From NCBI GenBank assembly GCA_023229435.1, contig JALNZF010000013.1, positions 10,433 through 74,432 on the forward strand: a stretch of DNA of 64,000 nucleotides. The letters run 5' to 3'. The position numbers were made by a program, and so were the translations under genes. Shown piece by piece: positions 3,796 through 56,452 of this stretch (the stretch's first letter is position 1; every line of letters begins with the position of its first letter). The DNA comes from Nitrospirota bacterium (GTDB lineage: Bacteria > Nitrospirota > UBA9217). The notes below the pieces were generated by a model. It searched no databases and was not told the origin of the DNA. It saw only the letters and a list, made by a program, of their open reading frames with translations.

Positions 3796-4365
3796 TCACT
3801 TGATCCTCTTCGATATGGCCTTGAACTCCTCCGTGCCGGCAACCTTGAGAAGCTGAAACAGCACCGTCTCGGTGCAGGTCACGACGGCGCCCGCCTCGCG
3901 CATGAACTCCATCCCGATCTTCCAGTTCTCCTTGGTGCGGGAGCAGATCGCGTCCTGCACGACATGGACATTGATCCCGCCCCTCAGCAGGCCGACGCAG
4001 GTCTGGAGCACGCAGATGTGCGTTTCCATGCCCGTCAGGATGACGCTCCTTTTCTTATGCCCTTTAAGCTCCTCCAGGAACGCGGGCTGGCCGCAGCAAT
4101 CGAAGGTCATCTTCTCAACCGGGCGGTAGAACGGCAGCGCCTCCCGGATCTCCGGCACGGTCGTGCCGAGCCCCCTGGGATACTGCTCAGTCACCATGAC
4201 CGGCAGGTGGATCATCTTGGCGAGCTCGACCAGGTGCAGGTTGTTCCTGACGACCTTGTCCCTTTCCTTCATGACCGCCGCAAGCTTGTCCTGAATATCA
4301 ACGATCAGAAGGACCGTGTCTTCCTTATCAATAATAAATTTGTCCAATGTCATAATGCGGTCCAT
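3796..4365 (-). CDS. Isochorismatase-family cysteine hydrolase
   Basis: It matches the YcaC/PncA-like family with a catalytic Cys context (MVTEQY...HICVLQT). Confidence 0.85.
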   Translation of the reverse strand: MDRIMTLDKFIIDKEDTVLLIVDIQDKLAAVMKERDKVVRNNLHLVELAKMIHLPVMVTEQYPRGLGTTVPEIREALPFYRPVEKMTFDCCGQPAFLEELKGHKKRSVILTGMETHICVLQTCVGLLRGGINVHVVQDAICSRTKENWKIGMEFMREAGAVVTCTETVLFQLLKVAGTEEFKAISKRIK

Positions 4366-4591
4366 CCTCTCTTGATAGAACCGGTATCAATAAATTGATG
4401 TTATATCTCCGCACATCCCCCTCACCCTACCCTCTCCCCTCGAGGGAGAGGATAATAGAGCATTAACGACAGAACGAGAAGAACAGATAACAATATACTT
4501 TCTTCAATAGGCCGTGGATGGTTCTTATATTCCACACTCCGCATTCCGAATTCTGCATTCGATACCGGCAGCCTGCCGGTCCTCAGACCCC

Positions 4592-4801
4592 TCATGAACC
4601 GCCTTCATAACCAACGGAGATTTTATCGCCTTCCACGATCACCGGCACCTTCCTCACTCCCTTTGAATACGTCAGCATTTCATCCAATTTCGCGCTATCC
4701 GTCTTCACATCATAATACGCAGCCTTATTCCCGTAGACCGACCTGGCCCTGTCGGTATGCGGTCAGCCGGATTTCCCGAAGATCATCGCCGTCTCTGCCA
4801 T
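4592..4801 (-). CDS. Candidate selenoprotein: glutaredoxin-like (YruB/NrdH fold) protein with in-frame TGA at the active-site position (U-P-H-T)
   Basis: ATG at 4801 preceded by SD GGAGGAGAGG. Translation is MAETAMIFGKSG-[TGA at 4765..4763]-PHTDRARSVYGNKAAYYDVKTDSAKLDEMLTYSKGVRKVPVIVEGDKISVGYEGGS. The TGA falls exactly where Grx-like proteins have the first Cys of CPxC. A stable hairpin lies 7-26 nt downstream of the TGA. Confidence 0.4.
4737..4756 (-). other. Candidate bacterial SECIS-like hairpin downstream of in-frame UGA
   Basis: On the minus strand the sequence is ACCGAC-agggccag-GUCGGU, with a perfect 6-bp stem, an 8-nt G-rich loop, and its first base 7 nt after the UGA. Confidence 0.3.
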
Positions 4802-4906
4802 AGATCCTCTCCTCCAGGCGAAGTGAAATCATACGATTACCGGTGATCCTATAATATCATTTTACGGATGCAAAAGTAACTCTTTTACGATACAATCATA
4901 ACCGTG

Positions 4907-5557
4907 ATGTCAGACGGAACAAATCCACCGGCAAGATTGTCATATAGTACTGGACAGAGCAGCTCTTCTGTTTCAGATGACGATGCGGCGCTCGTATCAT
5001 CTGCGCAAAAAGGCGACCTGCGCGCATTTGAACAGCTGGTGACAAAACACCAGAAAAAGATGCTCAACATCGCGTATCGACTGATCGGGGATCATGATGA
5101 CGCGTGCGAGGTCGTGCAGGACGCATTTGTCTCTGCTTATAAGAACATCAGGCGGTTCCGGGGGGATGCAAAATTCACGACCTGGCTCACGACGATAACC
5201 CTGAACCTGTCGAAGAACCGGCTGAAACAGGTCAGGTCCCGGCAGGGCCATGAAGCCTTTTCCCTGAACGATCCGATCCAGACCGATGACGGCACGATGA
5301 CCATGGACCCGCCGTCAAAGGAACCATCCGTATTGGAGAGAATGGAAAGGCGGGCTGTCCAGACAAGGATGCGGGACTGCATTAAGGCATTGGATGCGGA
5401 TTTTCGGGAGATCCTCGTCCTTCGTGACATGCAGGAGTTCTCGTATGAAGAGATCGGGAGCATGCTCAAGGTCCGCGAGGGCACGGTCAAATCACGGCTG
5501 TTCAGGGCAAGAGATATGGTCAAGGATTGTTTGAAGCGGTTCATGGGAGAACTCTGA
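4907..5557 (+). CDS. ECF (RpoE-like) sigma-70 family sigma factor
   Basis: Region 2 reads LxxAQxGDxxAFEQL and region 4 carries an HTH. A GTG at 4904 or the ATG at 4907 could be the start. Confidence 0.85.
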   Translation: MSDGTNPPARLSYSTGQSSSSVSDDDAALVSSAQKGDLRAFEQLVTKHQKKMLNIAYRLIGDHDDACEVVQDAFVSAYKNIRRFRGDAKFTTWLTTITLNLSKNRLKQVRSRQGHEAFSLNDPIQTDDGTMTMDPPSKEPSVLERMERRAVQTRMRDCIKALDADFREILVLRDMQEFSYEEIGSMLKVREGTVKSRLFRARDMVKDCLKRFMGEL

Positions 5558-6627
5558 TGGAACATAACGACATACGTCATAGACTTTCCGAATATATCGA
5601 TGGGTCAGTCACGGGTGAAGAACGGGCGGCGATCGAAACGCACCTCAAGACGTGCCCGCAATGCAGCAGCGCGCTCGATGAGCTTCGGAAAACCATCGGG
5701 CATATCAAGTCCGTCGAAGAGATCGAGCCGCCTGCATGGATGACGCAGAAGATCATGGCAACCATTCGCGACGAAGCAGCGGAGAAAAAAGGCTTCTTCC
5801 ACAGGTTCTTCTTCCCCCTCCGCATAAAGCTTCCGATCCAGGCCATAGCGGTCCTGTTCCTTGCCGTAACCGGGTTCTATATCTATCAGACGGCGGAAAG
5901 ATTTTCTGAAGCCCCAACGCATGAACTTGCAACCCGGAACGAAGCCCCTCCAGTCGGCACTGCACAGGATAAACTTGCCAAATCTGAAAGTCCTGCGCTT
6001 CGCTCAAAGCAGGTCCCGCAAACTCCGGCGTATAAGGCTCTGGACATGAAACAGGGATACGAGACTCCTCCGCCGCCAATGCTGAAAGGCCGGGCTACGG
6101 CGCCGGTCCCCGTACCTGCACAACCGGCAGAACCGCCGATGCGGAAGAAAGATAAAGTCATGGCGGAGCAACCCACTGTCTCGCCGTACGCCGGGGCACC
6201 GTCATTGCCGCAGGAACAGACCGCGCCGGCTGCTCATGATCCGGGGCGGGACGAAGGGAGACATGAACCCGCACCCTTGAAACGACAATCCAGCGGTTTG
6301 TCGGCAGGCGAGGGATCAGGCTCAGAGAGCGCTCGTTCAGAGACCATTCTTACCGTATCGGTAAAAAATATTGACGACGCCGCGGAAGATATAGAAGCAA
6401 CGATCAGGGAGTTTGACGGAACCATTATCGAGACACAACAGCTCGATAAGAAAAAAATTTATGTGTTATCGCTGGACACTTCCCATGCAAAAGATCTTGT
6501 AGAAAAACTCAAGCACATGGGAGCCATGAAAGAACAAAATCTGGTTCTGAAATCCCGGGAAAGCCGTATGGTATTCAGAATCGAACTCAACAAACGGTCT
6601 GCGCCTAAGGCGGCTGTGGGATGCTGA
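5557..6627 (+). CDS. Anti-sigma factor, zf-HC2 type, single TM, Pro-rich periplasmic linker
   Basis: The start overlaps the sigma stop in an ATGA arrangement. A HxxxCxxC motif (ETHLKTCPQCSS) and one TM segment are present. Confidence 0.7.
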   Translation: MEHNDIRHRLSEYIDGSVTGEERAAIETHLKTCPQCSSALDELRKTIGHIKSVEEIEPPAWMTQKIMATIRDEAAEKKGFFHRFFFPLRIKLPIQAIAVLFLAVTGFYIYQTAERFSEAPTHELATRNEAPPVGTAQDKLAKSESPALRSKQVPQTPAYKALDMKQGYETPPPPMLKGRATAPVPVPAQPAEPPMRKKDKVMAEQPTVSPYAGAPSLPQEQTAPAAHDPGRDEGRHEPAPLKRQSSGLSAGEGSGSESARSETILTVSVKNIDDAAEDIEATIREFDGTIIETQQLDKKKIYVLSLDTSHAKDLVEKLKHMGAMKEQNLVLKSRESRMVFRIELNKRSAPKAAVGC

Positions 6628-15602: not shown

Positions 15603-15962
15603 ATGAAAAACGGATTTTTCATAGCGATTGCCTGCATGGCCGTGTTGATCGGTGCCTGCAGCCCCAGCACGGATTTCCTGGTGTTAAAACACGGGAGGGG
15701 CTATTACGTGGGGAGTAACTCGAATGCCAGATATGAAATGTTGTGTACGTCTGGCGAAATGGATAAAGTACTTGCTTCCTCAAAACTGAGCATGGAACTA
15801 AAAAACTCCCTCTATAAATACAGCTGTTCCGAGGAACGATCCGGGGAAAAGGTTAAACAGCTCTACGCAGCCATGACGGTTGAACAGAGAAAAGACATTA
15901 AAAATGCCTTTAGAATTAACGGCTTTGACATAAACCAGGGTCCCGGATGTTGCGCAGATTAA
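15603..15962 (+). CDS. Lipoprotein, uncharacterised family (paralog A)
   Basis: It has SD GAAGGAGG and a lipobox LIGAC. It is about 55% identical to paralog B at 16525. Confidence 0.6.
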   Translation: MKNGFFIAIACMAVLIGACSPSTDFLVLKHGRGYYVGSNSNARYEMLCTSGEMDKVLASSKLSMELKNSLYKYSCSEERSGEKVKQLYAAMTVEQRKDIKNAFRINGFDINQGPGCCAD

Positions 15963-16003
15963 TGAGAACCGCGGCCAACAACACCCCGATGAGGAGTTGC
16001 GTC

Positions 16004-16528
16004 ATGCGTCATATTCTATCCCTGTTCATTTTCTTTTCCATTATTTCCGCCAGGCAAGCAGCCTGTCTTGATACTGCCACCGAGAACGGGAAGCCTGCTC
16101 CATCATTCGCACTCGAAAATATCAACGGGGAAAAGGCCGCCCTCGCGGACTATAAGGGAATGGTCGTCCTCCTTAATTTTTGGGCGACCTATTGTGGACC
16201 CTGCAAAAAGGAAATGCCCTCTCTTCACAATCTTTTCCTCGCGTTTAAAAAGGACGGTCTCATCGTATTAGCCGTATCCAGGGACGAAGACAAAAAAAAT
16301 GTTCAATCATTCATCAAAAAACAGGCGATCACGTTTCCCGTGCTTATGGACAAAGATCAGGAGGTTTCCTTCGACCACTATGCTGTTCACAACCTTCCAA
16401 CAAGCTTTCTCATCGACCGGGACGGTATCATCAGAGAAACGATCATCGGCGAACGGGAATGGGATGCTCCGGATATGAAAAAGAAAATAGGATCATTACT
16501 GTCGAGCAAGAAAGGAGAGATGCAATGA
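16004..16528 (+). CDS. TlpA/ResA-like periplasmic thiol:disulfide oxidoreductase
   Basis: The motif WATYCGPC and a signal peptide are present. Start is the ATG at 16004, with SD GAGGAG 7 nt upstream. Confidence 0.8.
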   Translation: MRHILSLFIFFSIISARQAACLDTATENGKPAPSFALENINGEKAALADYKGMVVLLNFWATYCGPCKKEMPSLHNLFLAFKKDGLIVLAVSRDEDKKNVQSFIKKQAITFPVLMDKDQEVSFDHYAVHNLPTSFLIDRDGIIRETIIGEREWDAPDMKKKIGSLLSSKKGEMQ

Positions 16529-16869
16529 AAACCTGGCTCTTGATAGGTATTGCCGGAATGGTCCTGCTTACCAGCGCCTGCACCCCCATGATCATGGTTG
16601 GCAAAGGAGAGCGGAGGGGCGCTTTCCTGGGGAGCAGCTCGAAGACCATGTATGAGATGTTGTGTGCGTCGGGTGACCTGAAGAAAGTGCTTACCGCAAC
16701 ACACCTGAGCACGGAAATGAAAGACTCATTCTATCAGTACAACTGTTCAGCCGAACGTTCCGGTGACAAGCTTAAGCAACTGTACGCTTCCATGACGCCT
16801 GAACAGAGGAAAGACATCAGAACTGCCTTCAAAGCGAATGGCTATTCGATAAACGGCGGAACCTGTTGA
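16525..16869 (+). CDS. Lipoprotein, uncharacterised family (paralog B)
   Basis: The ATG overlaps the tlpA stop (ATGA) and SD AAAGGAGAG is present. The lipobox is LTSAC. The conserved block YEMLCxSG...YxCSxERSGxKxKQLYAxMTxEQRKDI is shared with paralog A. Confidence 0.6.
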   Translation: MKTWLLIGIAGMVLLTSACTPMIMVGKGERRGAFLGSSSKTMYEMLCASGDLKKVLTATHLSTEMKDSFYQYNCSAERSGDKLKQLYASMTPEQRKDIRTAFKANGYSINGGTC

Positions 16870-17230
16870 GGACCGATTGAAACAACATCCGGTCGGATGA
16901 AAGCTCTCTGATAAAACAAGGTTCTTCAACAAAGATACCGATGATCAACATCGGCAGGCGATTTTCTTTATGAATGAAACCATCAAAGTCATTCACATGA
17001 AAAAGAAATTTCCGCATGGCTGGTACGCAGCATGCGGACGGGATATCACATCGAATACCGCTGTCGTTTCTTCCTGGTCCGAGGTGACCTGTAAAAACTG
17101 CAAATTAAAACAATTGAGCGATACTGATTGTGGAAAATATTCCACTTTGTCCGCGAGGGTCAGGTCAGAGTGTTTATAGCGCTATTCGTTCTTACCGTAA
17201 GCAATAACCCTGTTTCTTTTCTTGGCCCTC

Positions 17231-22679: not shown

Positions 22680-22820
22680 GTGCTCTAAAGTGACTAAAGT
22701 GAACTAAAATGCGCTAAAGTGAGAACTTCTAATCTTATTTTAGGCACTTTAGGCACTTTAGGCACTTTAGGCACTTTAGGCACTTTAGGCACTTTATGAA
22801 TTTTAGGCACTTTTTTCCCC
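22680..22820. repeat. Intergenic composite repeat: inverted arms built of 9-10 bp tandem units (CTAAAGTGN x4 / GGCACTTTA x6-7)
   Basis: Seen directly in the sequence. A homologous element is present at 35590..35712. Confidence 0.8.
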
Positions 22821-22823
22821 TCT

Positions 22824-23606
22824 CTACTTCTCCCGTTCCTCTATCCCCTGATCCGAAAGTGTAAAAACATCGTCAGCCACGGCCACATACATGTCCGCCT
22901 CGGTGTACTCGATCGTGATCGTCACGCCCTTCCCGGGACTCTCTATGACGATTGTCCTGGGCAGGAGAACATGCGATACTTCCTGCATGCGTTCATACCG
23001 TGTCCGGTACACCAGGGTATTCGATTGGTAGAGCTCCTGAACAGCGATCCTGAGCGCCGGCACCAAGTCTGATGAAGGAGGCAGCACGCGGATGCGCCGC
23101 ACCGTGTCCCCCTCAGGCAGTTCGATCACGCAGGCATTGTTCTGCGTGCAGAACACCCGTGCGTCCAAAGGCCGGGTGATCTCCGTGACCATGCCGGAGA
23201 GGATGGCGCAAAGGTCCTTTGCCTCCACGCTCATGCCAAGAAGTCTCTCTATCCCGGCCTGCCCGGGTCTCATGATCCTGTCGTCATCCTGCATGCGCAA
23301 CAACACGTCGTTGCCGTCCCATACGAGCGCGATGAAGGACTGCCCCAGGGGCCCGAAGGCTTCCACCCGGAGCCTGCGCTGGGCGTCGAGCACGATACCC
23401 ACGGTATCGAAAGAACGCTTCACCCCCCGCCTGACCACCTCAACGCTCGCGATCGCCTTAAGCCCGGTGAAGGCCTGACGCTGCTGTTCCAGCGCTTGGA
23501 CGAGCGGGCCGGCAGGGACCTCGGTGCCGGGGATCCCGGGTTTTTTCGGGAGACAGGAGAACAGGAACAAAACAACGATGAGGACGATGATCCGGCGGGT
23601 CTTCAC
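22824..23606 (-). CDS. LolB-like outer-membrane lipoprotein (DUF4292-like)
   Basis: It has a lipobox (LFSC). Its position immediately upstream of ispE matches the conserved lolB-ispE-prs order. Confidence 0.55.
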   Translation of the reverse strand: MKTRRIIVLIVVLFLFSCLPKKPGIPGTEVPAGPLVQALEQQRQAFTGLKAIASVEVVRRGVKRSFDTVGIVLDAQRRLRVEAFGPLGQSFIALVWDGNDVLLRMQDDDRIMRPGQAGIERLLGMSVEAKDLCAILSGMVTEITRPLDARVFCTQNNACVIELPEGDTVRRIRVLPPSSDLVPALRIAVQELYQSNTLVYRTRYERMQEVSHVLLPRTIVIESPGKGVTITIEYTEADMYVAVADDVFTLSDQGIEEREK

Positions 23607-25351
23607 TGCCTGCCCTTTTTCCTCGGCTTCACGTCCTTGAGCAGGTCATCGGGCTTGCCGAACCCCGCCTCCTTGAACTTCTCGCGGAGATTCTGGTTCT
23701 CGGGGTCAAGCTCCAGGGACTTGAGCCACTGCAGTCTGGCATTGTCCTTGTCGGCAAACTTCAGGTAAATATCACCATAGTGCTCGCGCATCACGGGGTC
23801 CTTCTCCACCTTCCCGACGGCTTCTCTCATGACCGCGAGCGCCTCGTTCAGCATGCCCTTCTGATAATAGGCCCAGGCGAGGCTGTCGAGGATGTAACCG
23901 CTGTCAGGTTTGATCAGGAGCGCGCGCTTGATAAGCCGTATCGACTCGTCGAGGTTCTCTCCTTTTTCGGCAAAGGAATAGCCGAGGTAGTTCAAGGCAT
24001 CCGCGTGGTCCGGCTTAAGCTCGATCGTTTTTTTAAGCGTAGCGATCATCTCTACGCGCTTACCCTGCTTTTCATAGGCAATTGCCAGACTGAACAGCAG
24101 ATCGTCCCGGTCCGGCGCCATCTGGAACCCCCTGATCAGCGTATCGACAGCTTGCTGGTATTTTTCGAGATCCATATACGCATTGGCCAGATACAGATAG
24201 AGCTCGGGCTTCCCGGGCTGTTCGGCGAGCGCCCTCTCCAGGAGCGGCACGGCGTCCGCGATCCTGCCCATCTGCGCATAAATATACGCGATCTGGAGGA
24301 CCGCGTCGGTGTCCTCGGGATCGGCTGACCGGAGGGACTGATATTCCGCGAGCGCCTCCGCATACCGTTCCACGGCCACCAGGGTGGAGGCGAGGTAACG
24401 CTTGACCCTTAGGTCCTTTGGCATTGCGCGCGAAACGACCAGGAATGCCTCCACCGCCTCTTCGTATTTTTTCTGCTCGGCATGGATGAGACCCATCTTG
24501 ACAAAGGCGTCATAGTTCCTGGGGTCCATGGCGGTCACCTGTTTCAATTGTTCCAATGCCTCGGGAAGCGAATTCTGCTGAATATAGAGCTGGGCAAGGT
24601 GCTGCTGGATCTCAAGGTTGTGGGGATTGATCCCGATGGCCTTCTTATATGCCTCAATGGCGTCGCCGACATTGTCCATCTGCTCATAGACGAACGCCAT
24701 GCCGATGAACGCGGGATCGAAGTCGTCCCGAATGGAGATCGCGCGCTGATATTCTGCCAGTGCTTCCTTATACATCTGCCGTTCCGTGTAGATCCGTCCG
24801 AGATAATACGGCGACATAAGCAGCGTTGGATTGATCTTATCGAGGGCATGAAACGTCTCCACGGCTTCGTCGTACCGCTTCAGAGACGCATACAGAGAAC
24901 CAAGGTACAGGTAGGAGTCCTCCTGCTGCGGATTGAGCGATATTACCTTGCGATAGACGGTCACCGCATCGTCGTATCTCTTTTTGCTCGTATAGATGTT
25001 GGCAAGGAGCATGAGCGGCTGCGGGTTGTCCGGTTGCAGTTCCGCCGCCTGCTGCGCATAACGGGTCGCCTTATCAAGTTGCCCCTTGCGAAGCGAGAGG
25101 GATGCGAGAGAGAGGGGGACTACGGCAGCTTTCGGATCCAGCCGGAACGCCTCCTCATATTCATTCATGGCAACATCGAACTCTCCATCCTCTTCAGAGA
25201 GCCTGCCGATGATAAAATGGTAATAGGCATCTGCTTGTGTGCGGACGCCGGACCCGATCTTCGCGGACGTGGTTTCAGGCATCCTGGCGGGAGACGTTGC
25301 GCAGGCACCAACGAAAAGAGAGAGCGACAGAAGTGCGAAGGTCTTTTTCAT
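23603..25351 (-). CDS. TPR-repeat lipoprotein
   Basis: About 14 TPR units are present. The start is taken at MKKTFALLSLSLFVGAC (ATG 25351). Confidence 0.7.
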   Translation of the reverse strand: MKKTFALLSLSLFVGACATSPARMPETTSAKIGSGVRTQADAYYHFIIGRLSEEDGEFDVAMNEYEEAFRLDPKAAVVPLSLASLSLRKGQLDKATRYAQQAAELQPDNPQPLMLLANIYTSKKRYDDAVTVYRKVISLNPQQEDSYLYLGSLYASLKRYDEAVETFHALDKINPTLLMSPYYLGRIYTERQMYKEALAEYQRAISIRDDFDPAFIGMAFVYEQMDNVGDAIEAYKKAIGINPHNLEIQQHLAQLYIQQNSLPEALEQLKQVTAMDPRNYDAFVKMGLIHAEQKKYEEAVEAFLVVSRAMPKDLRVKRYLASTLVAVERYAEALAEYQSLRSADPEDTDAVLQIAYIYAQMGRIADAVPLLERALAEQPGKPELYLYLANAYMDLEKYQQAVDTLIRGFQMAPDRDDLLFSLAIAYEKQGKRVEMIATLKKTIELKPDHADALNYLGYSFAEKGENLDESIRLIKRALLIKPDSGYILDSLAWAYYQKGMLNEALAVMREAVGKVEKDPVMREHYGDIYLKFADKDNARLQWLKSLELDPENQNLREKFKEAGFGKPDDLLKDVKPRKKGRQ

Positions 25352-25444
25352 GATCGTAAATCCCTGTGAACAACTGGTATGTGTCAAGGGAAACTCCGCA
25401 TTAATGGTAAATTGTACTGGTTTACTGATAAAGGCGAAACTAAA

Positions 25445-25622
25445 AGGCGTCTCTCGCAGAGGCGCAGAGCTCACAGAGAAAAGCGCAAAAAATGTTCTTG
25501 TTTAAAATAAATACAAAAAGGTTTGATTTAACTCTGCGAACTCTGCGGATGTCCTAAGTGGCCGCTTTTCTTTCATAGGCTACTGCGAGAAAATTTCCTG
25601 CCATTTTAGAAGAATTTGATTC
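25445..25622. repeat. ~180-bp intergenic palindromic repeat element, copy 1 (CGCAGAG-motif family)
   Basis: It shares its ends and a 49-nt identical core with 29937..30114 (inverted) and with 58487..58626. Confidence 0.8.
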
Positions 25623-28852: not shown

Positions 28853-29887
28853 TCACCTTGCCCCTGGACCCTGCCCCCTGAAGCCTTCAATCCTCACCCT
28901 GTCCCCCACTCTGATCCCGGAGCCTGCCGAGGTCTCGATCACCCAGGCAGCCTGCTCGCCGGAGGTATATGTGTCCCGGCTCCCCGGCCTGCAGTCAGGA
29001 TAGACCCGGACGACCTTTTTATCAGGGCTGACAAATGCGATATCGATCGGATATGCAACGCTTCCCATCCAGAAGATGAGGACCTCGGGCTTCTCGAACA
29101 CAAAGAGCGCGGCCTCGTCGGTTCTCAATTGGCGAAAACCCTGCAGCCCCCGGGTCCGGGCCTCCTCAGTATCGCAGATCAGCACGATGTTGAAGGTACG
29201 GGGACCGGACCGGTGGTCAGCCGGCGTGATCGTCACTGACGACTGCTGCTTCGGTTTCTCCGCCGCGATGGCTTCAGCGCTGCCTGCCAGCCTTACTTCC
29301 ACCGCGAGCACAGCGATGCCGATCGCGATCGTCACGGCCGTGATCAGCGCGCCTACACGGAAATACTCCACAAACCCGATCTCCACCCGTTTTCTCGCCT
29401 GCTTCACCACGATCAGATTGGCAACGGAACCGATGAGCGTCAGGTTGCCCGCCAGGGTACTGCTCATGGCAAGCGCGAGCAGATATGGCATGGGGTTTAC
29501 TCCCAGCTGGATGGTTACCTCGAGAATGATCGGCGTATAGAGCAGACAGATCGTGTCGTTCACGAACAGAGCGGACAGCAAGCCGGACGACAGCACCACC
29601 AGGATGAGCAGCTGGAGCGGCGACTTTGCAGAAGAGAGCATCTTGTCCGCCATGAGCTCGAAGAATCCCGCAGTGCGGAGATAGACCGTGATGATCATCA
29701 TCCCGAGCAGCAGGAGCGTGTGCATGTCGATGGCGCTGAACGCCTGATCGAGGGTAAGCACCCCGAAGATAACCATCAGCACCGCGCCCACAAGCGCGCC
29801 GGCGGGCCGATCGATATGCAGACGCGGGATCTGGCGCAGGCCGATGAACAGGTAGGTGATGATGAAGATGATGAGTGCGGTGATCAT
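28853..29887 (-). CDS. Membrane protein: N-terminal ArsB/NhaD-type permease half fused to C-terminal DUF192-like domain
   Basis: About six TM helices are followed by a DUF192-like block (FEKPEVLIFWMGSVAYPIDIAFV). Confidence 0.55.
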   Translation of the reverse strand: MITALIIFIITYLFIGLRQIPRLHIDRPAGALVGAVLMVIFGVLTLDQAFSAIDMHTLLLLGMMIITVYLRTAGFFELMADKMLSSAKSPLQLLILVVLSSGLLSALFVNDTICLLYTPIILEVTIQLGVNPMPYLLALAMSSTLAGNLTLIGSVANLIVVKQARKRVEIGFVEYFRVGALITAVTIAIGIAVLAVEVRLAGSAEAIAAEKPKQQSSVTITPADHRSGPRTFNIVLICDTEEARTRGLQGFRQLRTDEAALFVFEKPEVLIFWMGSVAYPIDIAFVSPDKKVVRVYPDCRPGSRDTYTSGEQAAWVIETSAGSGIRVGDRVRIEGFRGQGPGAR

Positions 29888-35589: not shown

Positions 35590-35712
35590 CGTTAAAGTGA
35601 CTAAAGTACATTAAAGTGTCTAAAGTACGTTAAAGTGAATGAAGTGATCCTTCCAACTTTAGGCATTTTAGTCACTTTATGAATTTTAGGCACTTTTCTT
35701 CCCTCTCTACTT
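35590..35712. repeat. Second copy of the TAAAGTG/CACTTTA composite inverted-arm repeat
   Basis: It shares taaagtgactaaagt, cactttatgaattttaggcactttt and tccctctctactt with 22680..22820. Confidence 0.8.
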
Positions 35713-38036: not shown

Positions 38037-38119
38037 ATTGTCCGCAGATTACGCAGATTTCACAGATTAACATAAACCTGAATTTTGCTTTTAAAATCTG
38101 CGTCCATCTGCGAAATCTG
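38037..38119. repeat. Palindromic element with tandem CGCAGAT units in inverted arms
   Basis: The left arm tccgcagattacgcagatttcacagatt pairs with the right arm aatctgcgtccatctgcgaaatctgcgga. The architecture matches the other repeat families. Confidence 0.7.
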
Positions 38120-38170
38120 CGGATAGAAAGGTTTTTCTCTGATGTAACGCTCTTCTGGGTTCAGATTTTA

Positions 38171-55373: not shown

Positions 55374-55436
55374 CGTCCCTCGTCCCTCGTCCGTCGTCCT
55401 ACGTCTCTCGTCCCACGTCCCTCGTCCCTCGTCTCT
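55374..55436. repeat. Tandem heptanucleotide array, 9 units of CGTCCCT (minus strand GGGACGA)
   Basis: Seen in the sequence. It lies in the emrA-emrB intergenic spacer, immediately after the emrA stop. Confidence 0.85.
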
Positions 55437-56354: not shown

Positions 56355-56452
56355 GGAGCATAGGGTATGGAGCGGAGAGCTACAATGCTTCACCCTCTGC
56401 GTTATGCTCTTTGCCCTATGCGCTCTGCGCTATGCCCTTTGCGCTTTGCGCC

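Follow-up and report, generated by a model that had tools for sequence, protein, structure and literature searches.

Comparative evidence for an unannotated glutaredoxin-like gene of UXX-star family 1, most likely with two selenocysteines, in a Nitrospirota bacterium

The UXX-star selenoprotein family 1 is represented by the NCBIfam model NF041114. A review published in 2026 lists it as 'Distant Grx-like protein 1', with a UxxT motif and two selenocysteine (Sec) residues, and lists UXX-star family 2 with one Sec (PMC13188914). The function of the UXX-star family is a matter of speculation: the Sec residues may be metal ligands or may meet unknown substrates (PMC13188914). Our knowledge of the family is drawn from the NCBIfam names and from this review. 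The rules for a bacterial SECIS (bSECIS) given in the same work are a loop of 3-9 nt, a G in the first two loop positions and a spacing of 16-37 nt (PMC13188914). For recombinant rat thioredoxin reductase (TrxR1), a SECIS situated beyond the stop codon has been shown to be functional in E. coli, and the minimal E. coli element is GGUUGCA-GGUC-UGCACC (PMC3834832).

The window analyzed here is the whole stretch of 64,000 nucleotides from a contig of a Nitrospirota bacterium. The initial annotation had noticed in its minus strand an ATG open reading frame preceded by a Shine-Dalgarno (SD) sequence and interrupted by a single in-frame TGA, and had proposed that the frame encodes a glutaredoxin-like (Grx-like) selenoprotein of 69 residues. 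The reading frame is present, the SD-like sequence GGAGGAGAGG is found upstream of 4801, the in-frame TGA is codon 13, and the translation that had been given, MAETAMIFGKSG*PHT...VGYEGGS, matches our retranslation exactly. The end of the gene is different, however. Beyond the TGA at 4594-4592, taken earlier for the stop codon, the frame continues with GGG GTC and then reaches a further TGA at 4585-4583. The translation of the minus strand from 4801 reads MAETAMIFGKSG-TGA-PHTDRARSVYGNKAAYYDVKTDSAKLDEMLTYSKGVRKVPVIVEGDKISVGYEGGS-TGA-GV-TGA, and the product would have 72 residues, the seventieth of them a second Sec (Table 1). Judging from the comparison of sequences, the locus is a real, unannotated gene for a 72-residue Grx-like protein, most likely with two selenocysteines, and we hold with high confidence that both in-frame UGAs are decoded as Sec.

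Table 1. Positions in the window of the proposed UXX-star gene, its predicted recoding elements, its neighbors and a second candidate selenoprotein gene
Feature	Position	Strand	Basis or remark
Isochorismatase-family hydrolase, next downstream (context)	3796..4365	minus	weak NF041461 match; Pfam Isochorismatase label
SECIS-2 candidate hairpin ACCGGCA-GGC-UGCCGGU, 7 bp	4564..4580	minus	pairing and covariation in relatives
Proposed complete CDS, 72 codons, M1...U13...U70-G71-V72 and stop TGA	4583..4801	minus	translation, NF041114 match, 80 loci
Proposed true stop UGA, 6 nt past the Sec70 codon	4583..4585	minus	relatives: TGA 45, TAA 27, TAG 8
UGA codon 70, predicted Sec70 ('stop' of the initial annotation)	4592..4594	minus	TGA in 80/80 loci
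SECIS-1 candidate hairpin GGGCC-AGGUC-GGUCU, 5 bp, 5-nt loop	4735..4749	minus	conservation, compensatory changes
UGA codon 13, predicted Sec13, motif U-P-H-T	4763..4765	minus	codons of relatives and PDB profile alignment
ATG start codon	4801-4799	minus	read from sequence
SD-like sequence	4806..4815	minus	4 nt upstream of ATG; read from sequence
ECF sigma factor and zf-HC2 anti-sigma factor, divergent (context)	4904..6627	plus	Pfam, NCBIfam matches
Second UGA/SECIS gene, lipoprotein-like, probable	16525-16911	plus	UGA 16867-16869; hairpin 16886-16899

Ordinary gene calling does not see this locus, as had been stated before: the public gene calls of the source contig skip it, leaving nothing between 11291 and 11831 of that record (L083), which corresponds to about 4366-4906 of the window. 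A second assembly, Logan SRR8449812, has exactly the same 311 nt around the gene.

In the profile searches Cys was substituted at both TGAs. The 72-residue protein scores 101.1 bits against NF041114 (cutoff 72), with residues 6-72 aligned to positions 2-70 of the 70 positions of the profile, and 68.2 against the broader model NF041212 (cutoff 66). By its sequence, the gene is an ordinary member of the curated UXX-star selenoprotein family 1. Since this family has already been catalogued (NF041114; PMC13188914), the kind of gene is not new. The assignment to NrdH or YruB that had been suggested earlier is rejected, because both NCBIfam scores are far below their cutoffs (26.2 against 88.55 for YruB, TIGR02196; 12.5 against 85.75 for NrdH, TIGR02194). 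The U-x-x-T motif, thought at first to be unusual, is instead the motif of the family: Thr is present in all 80 loci described below, and UxxT is the form given in the review (PMC13188914).

A tblastn search with one genome per species returned 226 relatives, of which the best 80 (E = 1e-22 to 2e-33) were kept for the counts. With these scores and an NF041114 match above its cutoff, the gene as a whole goes well past what chance would give. These 80 loci come mostly from Nitrospirota/Thermodesulfovibrionales, with some from Desulfobacterota, Syntrophobacterales and Pelotomaculum. The nearest genome relative is 78% identical in protein sequence and has no frameshift. Among the 80, codon 13 is TGA in 70, TGC or TGT in nine and TAA in one, which answers the question, raised with the initial annotation, of whether relatives carry Cys at this position. 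The codon is followed by P-[Y/F/H]-T in every locus; PYT is the most frequent form and the U-P-H-T form occurs in 21. The C-terminal TGA, followed by two sense codons and a stop, is found in 80 of the 80 loci. The two codons encode GV in 69, and the stop after U-x-x is TGA in 45, TAA in 27 and TAG in eight. Past the second UGA, conservation reaches at least 90% in alignment columns 4, 5, 7 and 8 but not at the third codon positions; such third-position wobble is what one would expect of a sequence that is translated. As far as these codons can tell, the C-terminal Sec70 is more strictly conserved than Sec13, with TGA in 80/80 loci for the former versus replacement by Cys in 9/80 for the latter.

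The single locus with TAA at codon 13 (L022, 3037-3096) also has the SECIS-1 loop AGATC in place of AGGTC, both changes being G-to-A; this relative is either a decaying copy or the product of a sequencing error.

The protein search returned 15 homolog entries. Most of them are fragments of 42-52 aa that begin beyond the first TGA and run as far as the second. In P0001 and P0002 the TGAs had been read as Trp, which puts W at both sites. A Cys stands at the N-terminal site in P0004 and at the C-terminal site in P0009. As homologs are mostly stored as such fragments or as Trp read-throughs, and as the source interval itself is uncalled, UXX-star family 1 is systematically under-annotated in metagenome resources.

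The initial annotation had proposed a 6-bp hairpin, ACCGAC/GUCGGU (4756-4751 / 4742-4737), as the SECIS of codon 13. This hairpin is present 7 nt past the UGA, and its role as the SECIS does not hold. Its z-score is +0.16, and 100 out of 200 shuffled sequences fold equally well. Only 63.6% of the cells pair at its positions (columns 10-15/24-29 of alignment A3), which equals the shuffled controls, and the hairpin is complete in eight of the 71 TGA-bearing relatives. On these comparative pairing counts it was rejected as a SECIS. A second hairpin, here called SECIS-1, overlaps it (4749-4735 versus 4756-4737), and the two are thus mutually exclusive. SECIS-1 lies within the coding sequence, over codons R18-V22, and its loop starts 18 nt past UGA-13. 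Pairing is seen in 93.8% of its cells; slid controls give 11-59%, and two of the pairs show compensatory changes. The loop AGGTC occurs in 53 of the 71 TGA forms versus one of the nine Cys forms, in which the stem is also usually broken. An element that is kept in the TGA forms and degraded in the Cys forms behaves as expected of a SECIS.

The folding energies of the two overlapping hairpins are less clear-cut. In this window the hairpin proposed earlier is the more stable one (-8.4 versus -5.7 kcal/mol for SECIS-1), and family-wide SECIS-1 is the more stable one in 56 of 71 sequences. The energy of SECIS-1 reaches -9.5 kcal/mol when a lower stem is included. This lower stem (columns 11-13/33-35) is poorly conserved; it was considered as part of the element and found unsupported, being 73% paired with zero covariation. 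Compared with the bSECIS rules, SECIS-1 fits in loop and spacing, and its energy is marginal.

SECIS-2, the hairpin associated with UGA-70, is located entirely in the 3' UTR. It starts 2 nt past the stop codon, and its loop is 18 nt past UGA-70. The position beyond the stop codon follows from the fact that only two codons remain after Sec70. In the relatives 83.7% of its cells pair versus 24-47% in slid controls, and 143 compensatory cells are distributed over all seven pairs. The loop begins with (N)G[G/U] in 79 of the 80 loci, and the start of the loop is 16-19 nt past the UGA in 69. The energy of SECIS-2 is -11.4 kcal/mol. A U-tract or terminator was looked for at SECIS-2 and none was found, and the reading of this hairpin as a terminator was rejected for want of a U-tract. 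Both SECIS hairpins fit the published bSECIS rules for loop and spacing, each loop lying 18 nt past its UGA. In single-sequence folding neither UGA-associated hairpin surpasses shuffled sequence (z-scores +0.16 and -0.9), so that energy by itself is uninformative, and none of the SECIS families in Rfam was matched at permissive thresholds, which gave chance matches only. With Rfam empty and the single-sequence energies unremarkable, the case for the SECIS elements rests on the comparison between sequences.

The most durable alternative is that the TGA at 4594-4592 is a stop codon after all, so that the gene encodes a 69-residue protein with a single Sec, and the hairpin downstream of it is an mRNA-stabilizing or terminator stem. 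The open reading frame does end at this TGA, hairpins directly past stop codons are common, and the 69-residue version scores 93.0 bits against NF041114, still above the cutoff of 72. However, the addition of C-G-V to this version contributes 8 bits and completes the profile, and all 80 relatives keep the two sense codons and the stop with wobble at the third positions. Furthermore, homolog P0009 has a Cys at the codon-70 site, and SECIS-2 has no U-tract, a fixed spacing and a conserved G[G/U] at the start of its loop. We regard the single-Sec protein as very unlikely and retain the model with two Sec residues. The initial annotation can thus be followed as to the reading frame, the SD sequence, the TGA at codon 13 and the sequence of its hairpin, and as to a gene for a selenoprotein with the Grx fold. 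It cannot be followed as to where the gene ends, the choice of SECIS, the single Sec, the NrdH/YruB identity or the rarity of UxxT.

The decoding of the UGAs depends on whether the organism uses Sec. None of the ten large ORFs of the window that were tested against NCBIfam is selA, selB or selD. Scans for tRNA-Sec over about 81 kb of the 102-kb metagenome contig, which is k141_12111 of ENA ERZ27247322, found none, and the public gene calls at both ends of the window and in flanks of about 17 kb (about 81 kb in all) include no Sec machinery. Following the contig for about 7 kb to either side likewise yielded nothing. The absence of sel genes from about 81 kb of a multi-megabase genome says little. 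A pattern scan for a UGA followed by a SECIS-like hairpin found a second gene, at 16525-16911, annotated as a hypothetical protein of 114 aa (NCBI M0R70_10015) that ends ...GGTC-TGA. The predicted protein has the N-terminus MKTWLLIGIAGMVLLTSAC..., three invariant Cys residues and a C-terminal Cys-UGA dyad. Homologs have Cys at the UGA position (...SC-C-GDKQPTSGRM), and of the 22 metagenome relatives whose sequence could be used, 21 have TGY-TGA. The 15-nt element ACATCCGGTCGGATG, with the stem CAUCC/GGAUG and the loop GGUC, is invariant at the nucleotide level in 19 of 19 in-frame cases. It is also seen out of frame, downstream of an earlier stop, and in one instance a U-A pair in it is compensatory. 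The hairpin CAUCC-GGUC-GGAUG is located 18-24 nt downstream of TGY-TGA in the relatives, and its nucleotide invariance past the UGA suggests that the conserved 'TSGRM' ending is a translated SECIS. By its sequence, the gene is probably a second selenoprotein gene that has been mis-annotated, and as its protein has no match in Pfam or NCBIfam, it may represent an undescribed selenoprotein family. The presence in the window of two unrelated SECIS-bearing genes, both intact, supports the idea that this organism uses Sec and that its genome decodes UGA accordingly.

Two observations were made around this second gene. A paralog of its protein (P0078) is found in the same MAG. A TlpA/ResA-like redoxin (AhpC-TSA/Redoxin, WATYCGPC) at 15947-16528 of the plus strand overlaps the first 4 nt of the gene and is the upstream neighbor in at least eight of 23 metagenome loci, which suggests that the redoxin and the Cys-Sec lipoprotein form an extracytoplasmic redox or metal-handling pair.

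It could still be argued that the UXX-star gene is a decaying or untranslated remnant in an organism that has lost Sec decoding, in which only a peptide of 12 residues is made. No Sec machinery was found in the roughly 81 kb examined, and L022, whose codon 13 is TAA and whose loop is damaged, indicates that decay occurs in the family. Against this, both UGAs, both hairpins with their canonical loops, the SD sequence and all invariant residues are intact in the copy described here, the frame is uninterrupted in comparison with its nearest genome relative at 78% identity, and the unrelated UGA gene at 16525-16911 is intact as well. The remnant is even less likely than the single-Sec protein. Reassignment of TGA to Trp or Gly throughout the genome (code 4 or 25) without any Sec, as could be read from the W residues that their pipelines gave P0001 and P0002, is effectively refuted, since 19 of the 46 longest ORFs of the window end in TGA, including that of CorA, whose Pfam match reaches the end of the profile, so that TGA is an ordinary stop in an unreassigned code, and furthermore homologs align a Cys and in no case a Trp or Gly, and each recoded UGA has a dedicated hairpin past it; its probability is close to nil.

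The Grx-like fold that had been proposed is confirmed by PF00462 (29.8 bits against a cutoff of 22.9) and by Foldseek, in which nearly all of the top 25 matches are glutaredoxins, with probabilities of 0.77-1.0. The clostridial Grx structures 7c10 and 4tr0 are among the best matches in both sequence and fold. An alignment of the family profile with glutaredoxin structures of the PDB places Sec13 on the first Cys of CPYC, in agreement with the earlier statement that the TGA stands at the first Cys of CPxC. The resolving Cys of C-x-x-C is absent; its place is taken by Thr16 here and by Thr in 80 of 80 relatives. An AlphaFold (AF2) model of the homolog P0001, which is 81% identical and carries Trp at both Sec sites, has a beta-alpha-beta-alpha-beta-beta core with a pLDDT of 71, a C-terminal tail with a pLDDT below 50, and no helix after beta-4. 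The alignments to solved Grx structures end at residues 59-66 of the query. As the chain ends four residues after the GG motif (G67-G68), the final helix of glutaredoxins would be missing, and Sec70 would be located on a Gly-rich tail. As modeled, the protein has a minimal glutaredoxin fold without the C-terminal helix.

By combining these observations, it is possible to propose how the gene is decoded and what its product might do. Both in-frame UGAs would be read as Sec by SelB and tRNA-Sec, each of them served by its own small hairpin with a G-G loop 18 nt downstream. The third UGA, 6 nt past the second, would be too near the hairpin to be recoded and would act as the stop. Sec13 would be placed as the nucleophile of the Grx active site, in which Thr replaces the resolving Cys. 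Sec70, two residues past the GG motif on the Gly-rich tail, could reach Sec13, and the two might then form either a selenol/diselenide redox pair or a set of two selenolate ligands. In the Grx fold the GG loop adjoins the active site, which makes a Sec13-Sec70 diselenide or a two-selenolate metal site plausible. Purely by inference, the protein might function as a redox shuttle or as a metal binder through Sec13 and Sec70. In monothiol glutaredoxins, such as yeast Grx5 with its Cys60/Cys117, a Cys after the GG motif is the resolving residue. The protein might be recycled by the AhpF/thioredoxin reductase-like flavoprotein of its closest relatives, the gene for which is absent from the window. 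A more specific proposal, which we put forward only tentatively and consider rather doubtful, is that Sec70 and not Sec13 is the indispensable residue, that its selenol makes an intramolecular diselenide with residue 13 and is recycled by the AhpF-like flavoprotein whose gene adjoins it in 16 relatives, and that the protein is a minimal Grx equipped with a TrxR-like mobile selenol.

The neighborhood of the gene is conserved over a short evolutionary range. No neighbor is conserved across phyla among 81 loci, and sharing is confined to the closest Nitrospirota clade. The divergent ECF sigma/anti-sigma pair is found in 15 of the 81 loci, the window included, all of them in this clade, and the isochorismatase-family neighbor is also present in the closest Nitrospirota relatives. 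An AhpF-like gene (about 550 aa) is located downstream on the same strand in 16 close relatives (loci L001-L016, L026, L030, L053). Its product combines a PDO-like CxxC domain at the N-terminus with a thioredoxin-disulfide reductase domain (e.g. L012 4001-5650). A tblastn search of the window gave no significant match to the AhpF-like gene.

Several further features of the DNA were recorded. A tandem array of period 7 (unit GCGGAAU, 4.6 copies) occupies 4529-4560 of the minus strand, just 3' of SECIS-2. Arrays of 7 nt are found at the same spot in relatives, with a similar unit in L004 and L030 and the unit GATTGTA in L029, L058 and L074, and are sometimes inverted pairs (L058, L072). Intergenic tandem arrays of 7-9 nt, each with a unit of its own, are also present at 22739-22813, 35590-35696, 38043-38121, 55374-55433, 56393-56451 and other places; some of them are adjacent and inverted, such as TAAAGTGAC and ACTTTAGGC at 35590-35696. 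Short-period arrays look like a genome-wide feature that is not specific to the UXX-star gene. Between the UXX-star and isochorismatase-family genes there is a perfect, GC-rich 8-bp hairpin, CCUCUCCC-UCGAG-GGGAGAGG (4431-4451, minus strand), with no U-tract on either strand. Elsewhere in the window, a TPR protein of 623 aa (23603-25474, minus strand) scores 189.9 bits against a cutoff of 200 with the magnetosome MamA model NF040959, and an ArsB-like ORF at 28853-29887 weakly matches MamN. Both matches probably reflect generic TPR and transporter similarity.

The comparison adds support for the decoding of two UGAs, for a SECIS-2 past the stop, for the stricter conservation of the C-terminal Sec and for a TrxR-like neighbor in the closest clade. 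With respect to annotation, standard callers have missed a real gene, and the public record is empty at the locus. Bacterial SECIS elements are usually said to be located inside coding regions, and SECIS-2, lying past the stop codon, would depart from this. It would then be a natural bacterial SECIS acting wholly from the 3' UTR, with two UGAs only 6 nt apart told apart by their distance from the hairpin. If the tentative proposal for Sec70 is true, the protein would be a low-potential diselenide relay of a kind without earlier biochemical characterization.

Comparison with known systems places the gene within UXX-star family 1, from which it has no substantial difference. It has in common with the family a full-length score above the cutoff, the N-terminal U-P-x-T, two Sec per chain, of which one is encoded three codons ahead of the stop, and the Grx-like fold, and the copy described here is a U-P-H-T variant that is uncalled in the source record. 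UXX-star families 2 and 3 and the HUGP/GUXX-star fusion have the same small Grx-like scaffold and U-x-x-stop ending, and all their scores are under the cutoffs (NF041211, 39.8 against 100; NF047338, 41.5 against 97; NF045501, 32.9 against 325). The clostridial selenoprotein glutaredoxins (cGrx1/cGrx2; 7c10, 4tr0) share the Grx fold and a Sec as the first residue of the active-site motif. They differ in that their motif, UxxC, retains the resolving Cys, that they contain only one Sec and possess a C-terminal helix, and that their SECIS lies within the CDS, whereas the protein described here has Thr, lacks the last helix and would carry a second Sec on its C-terminal tail.

The monothiol glutaredoxins also have no second active-site Cys, and a chalcogen residue just past their GG motif can pair with the active site; they use sulfur, have the CGFS motif and bind an Fe-S cluster. 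By analogy, they may serve as a lead for the mechanism only. Finally, the Gly-Cys-Sec-Gly-stop tail of mammalian TrxR likewise has a Sec near the C-terminus on a Gly-rich tail, and its decoding in bacteria requires a SECIS past the stop codon, as in TrxR1 expressed in E. coli, with a GGUC loop in common with SECIS-1. TrxR is a large flavoprotein with a Cys-Sec redox pair, and its bacterial SECIS is artificial. Unlike TrxR, the UXX-star gene would have a natural SECIS in its 3' UTR, and its C-terminal Sec would have as its partner a remote Sec that belongs to a Grx active site.
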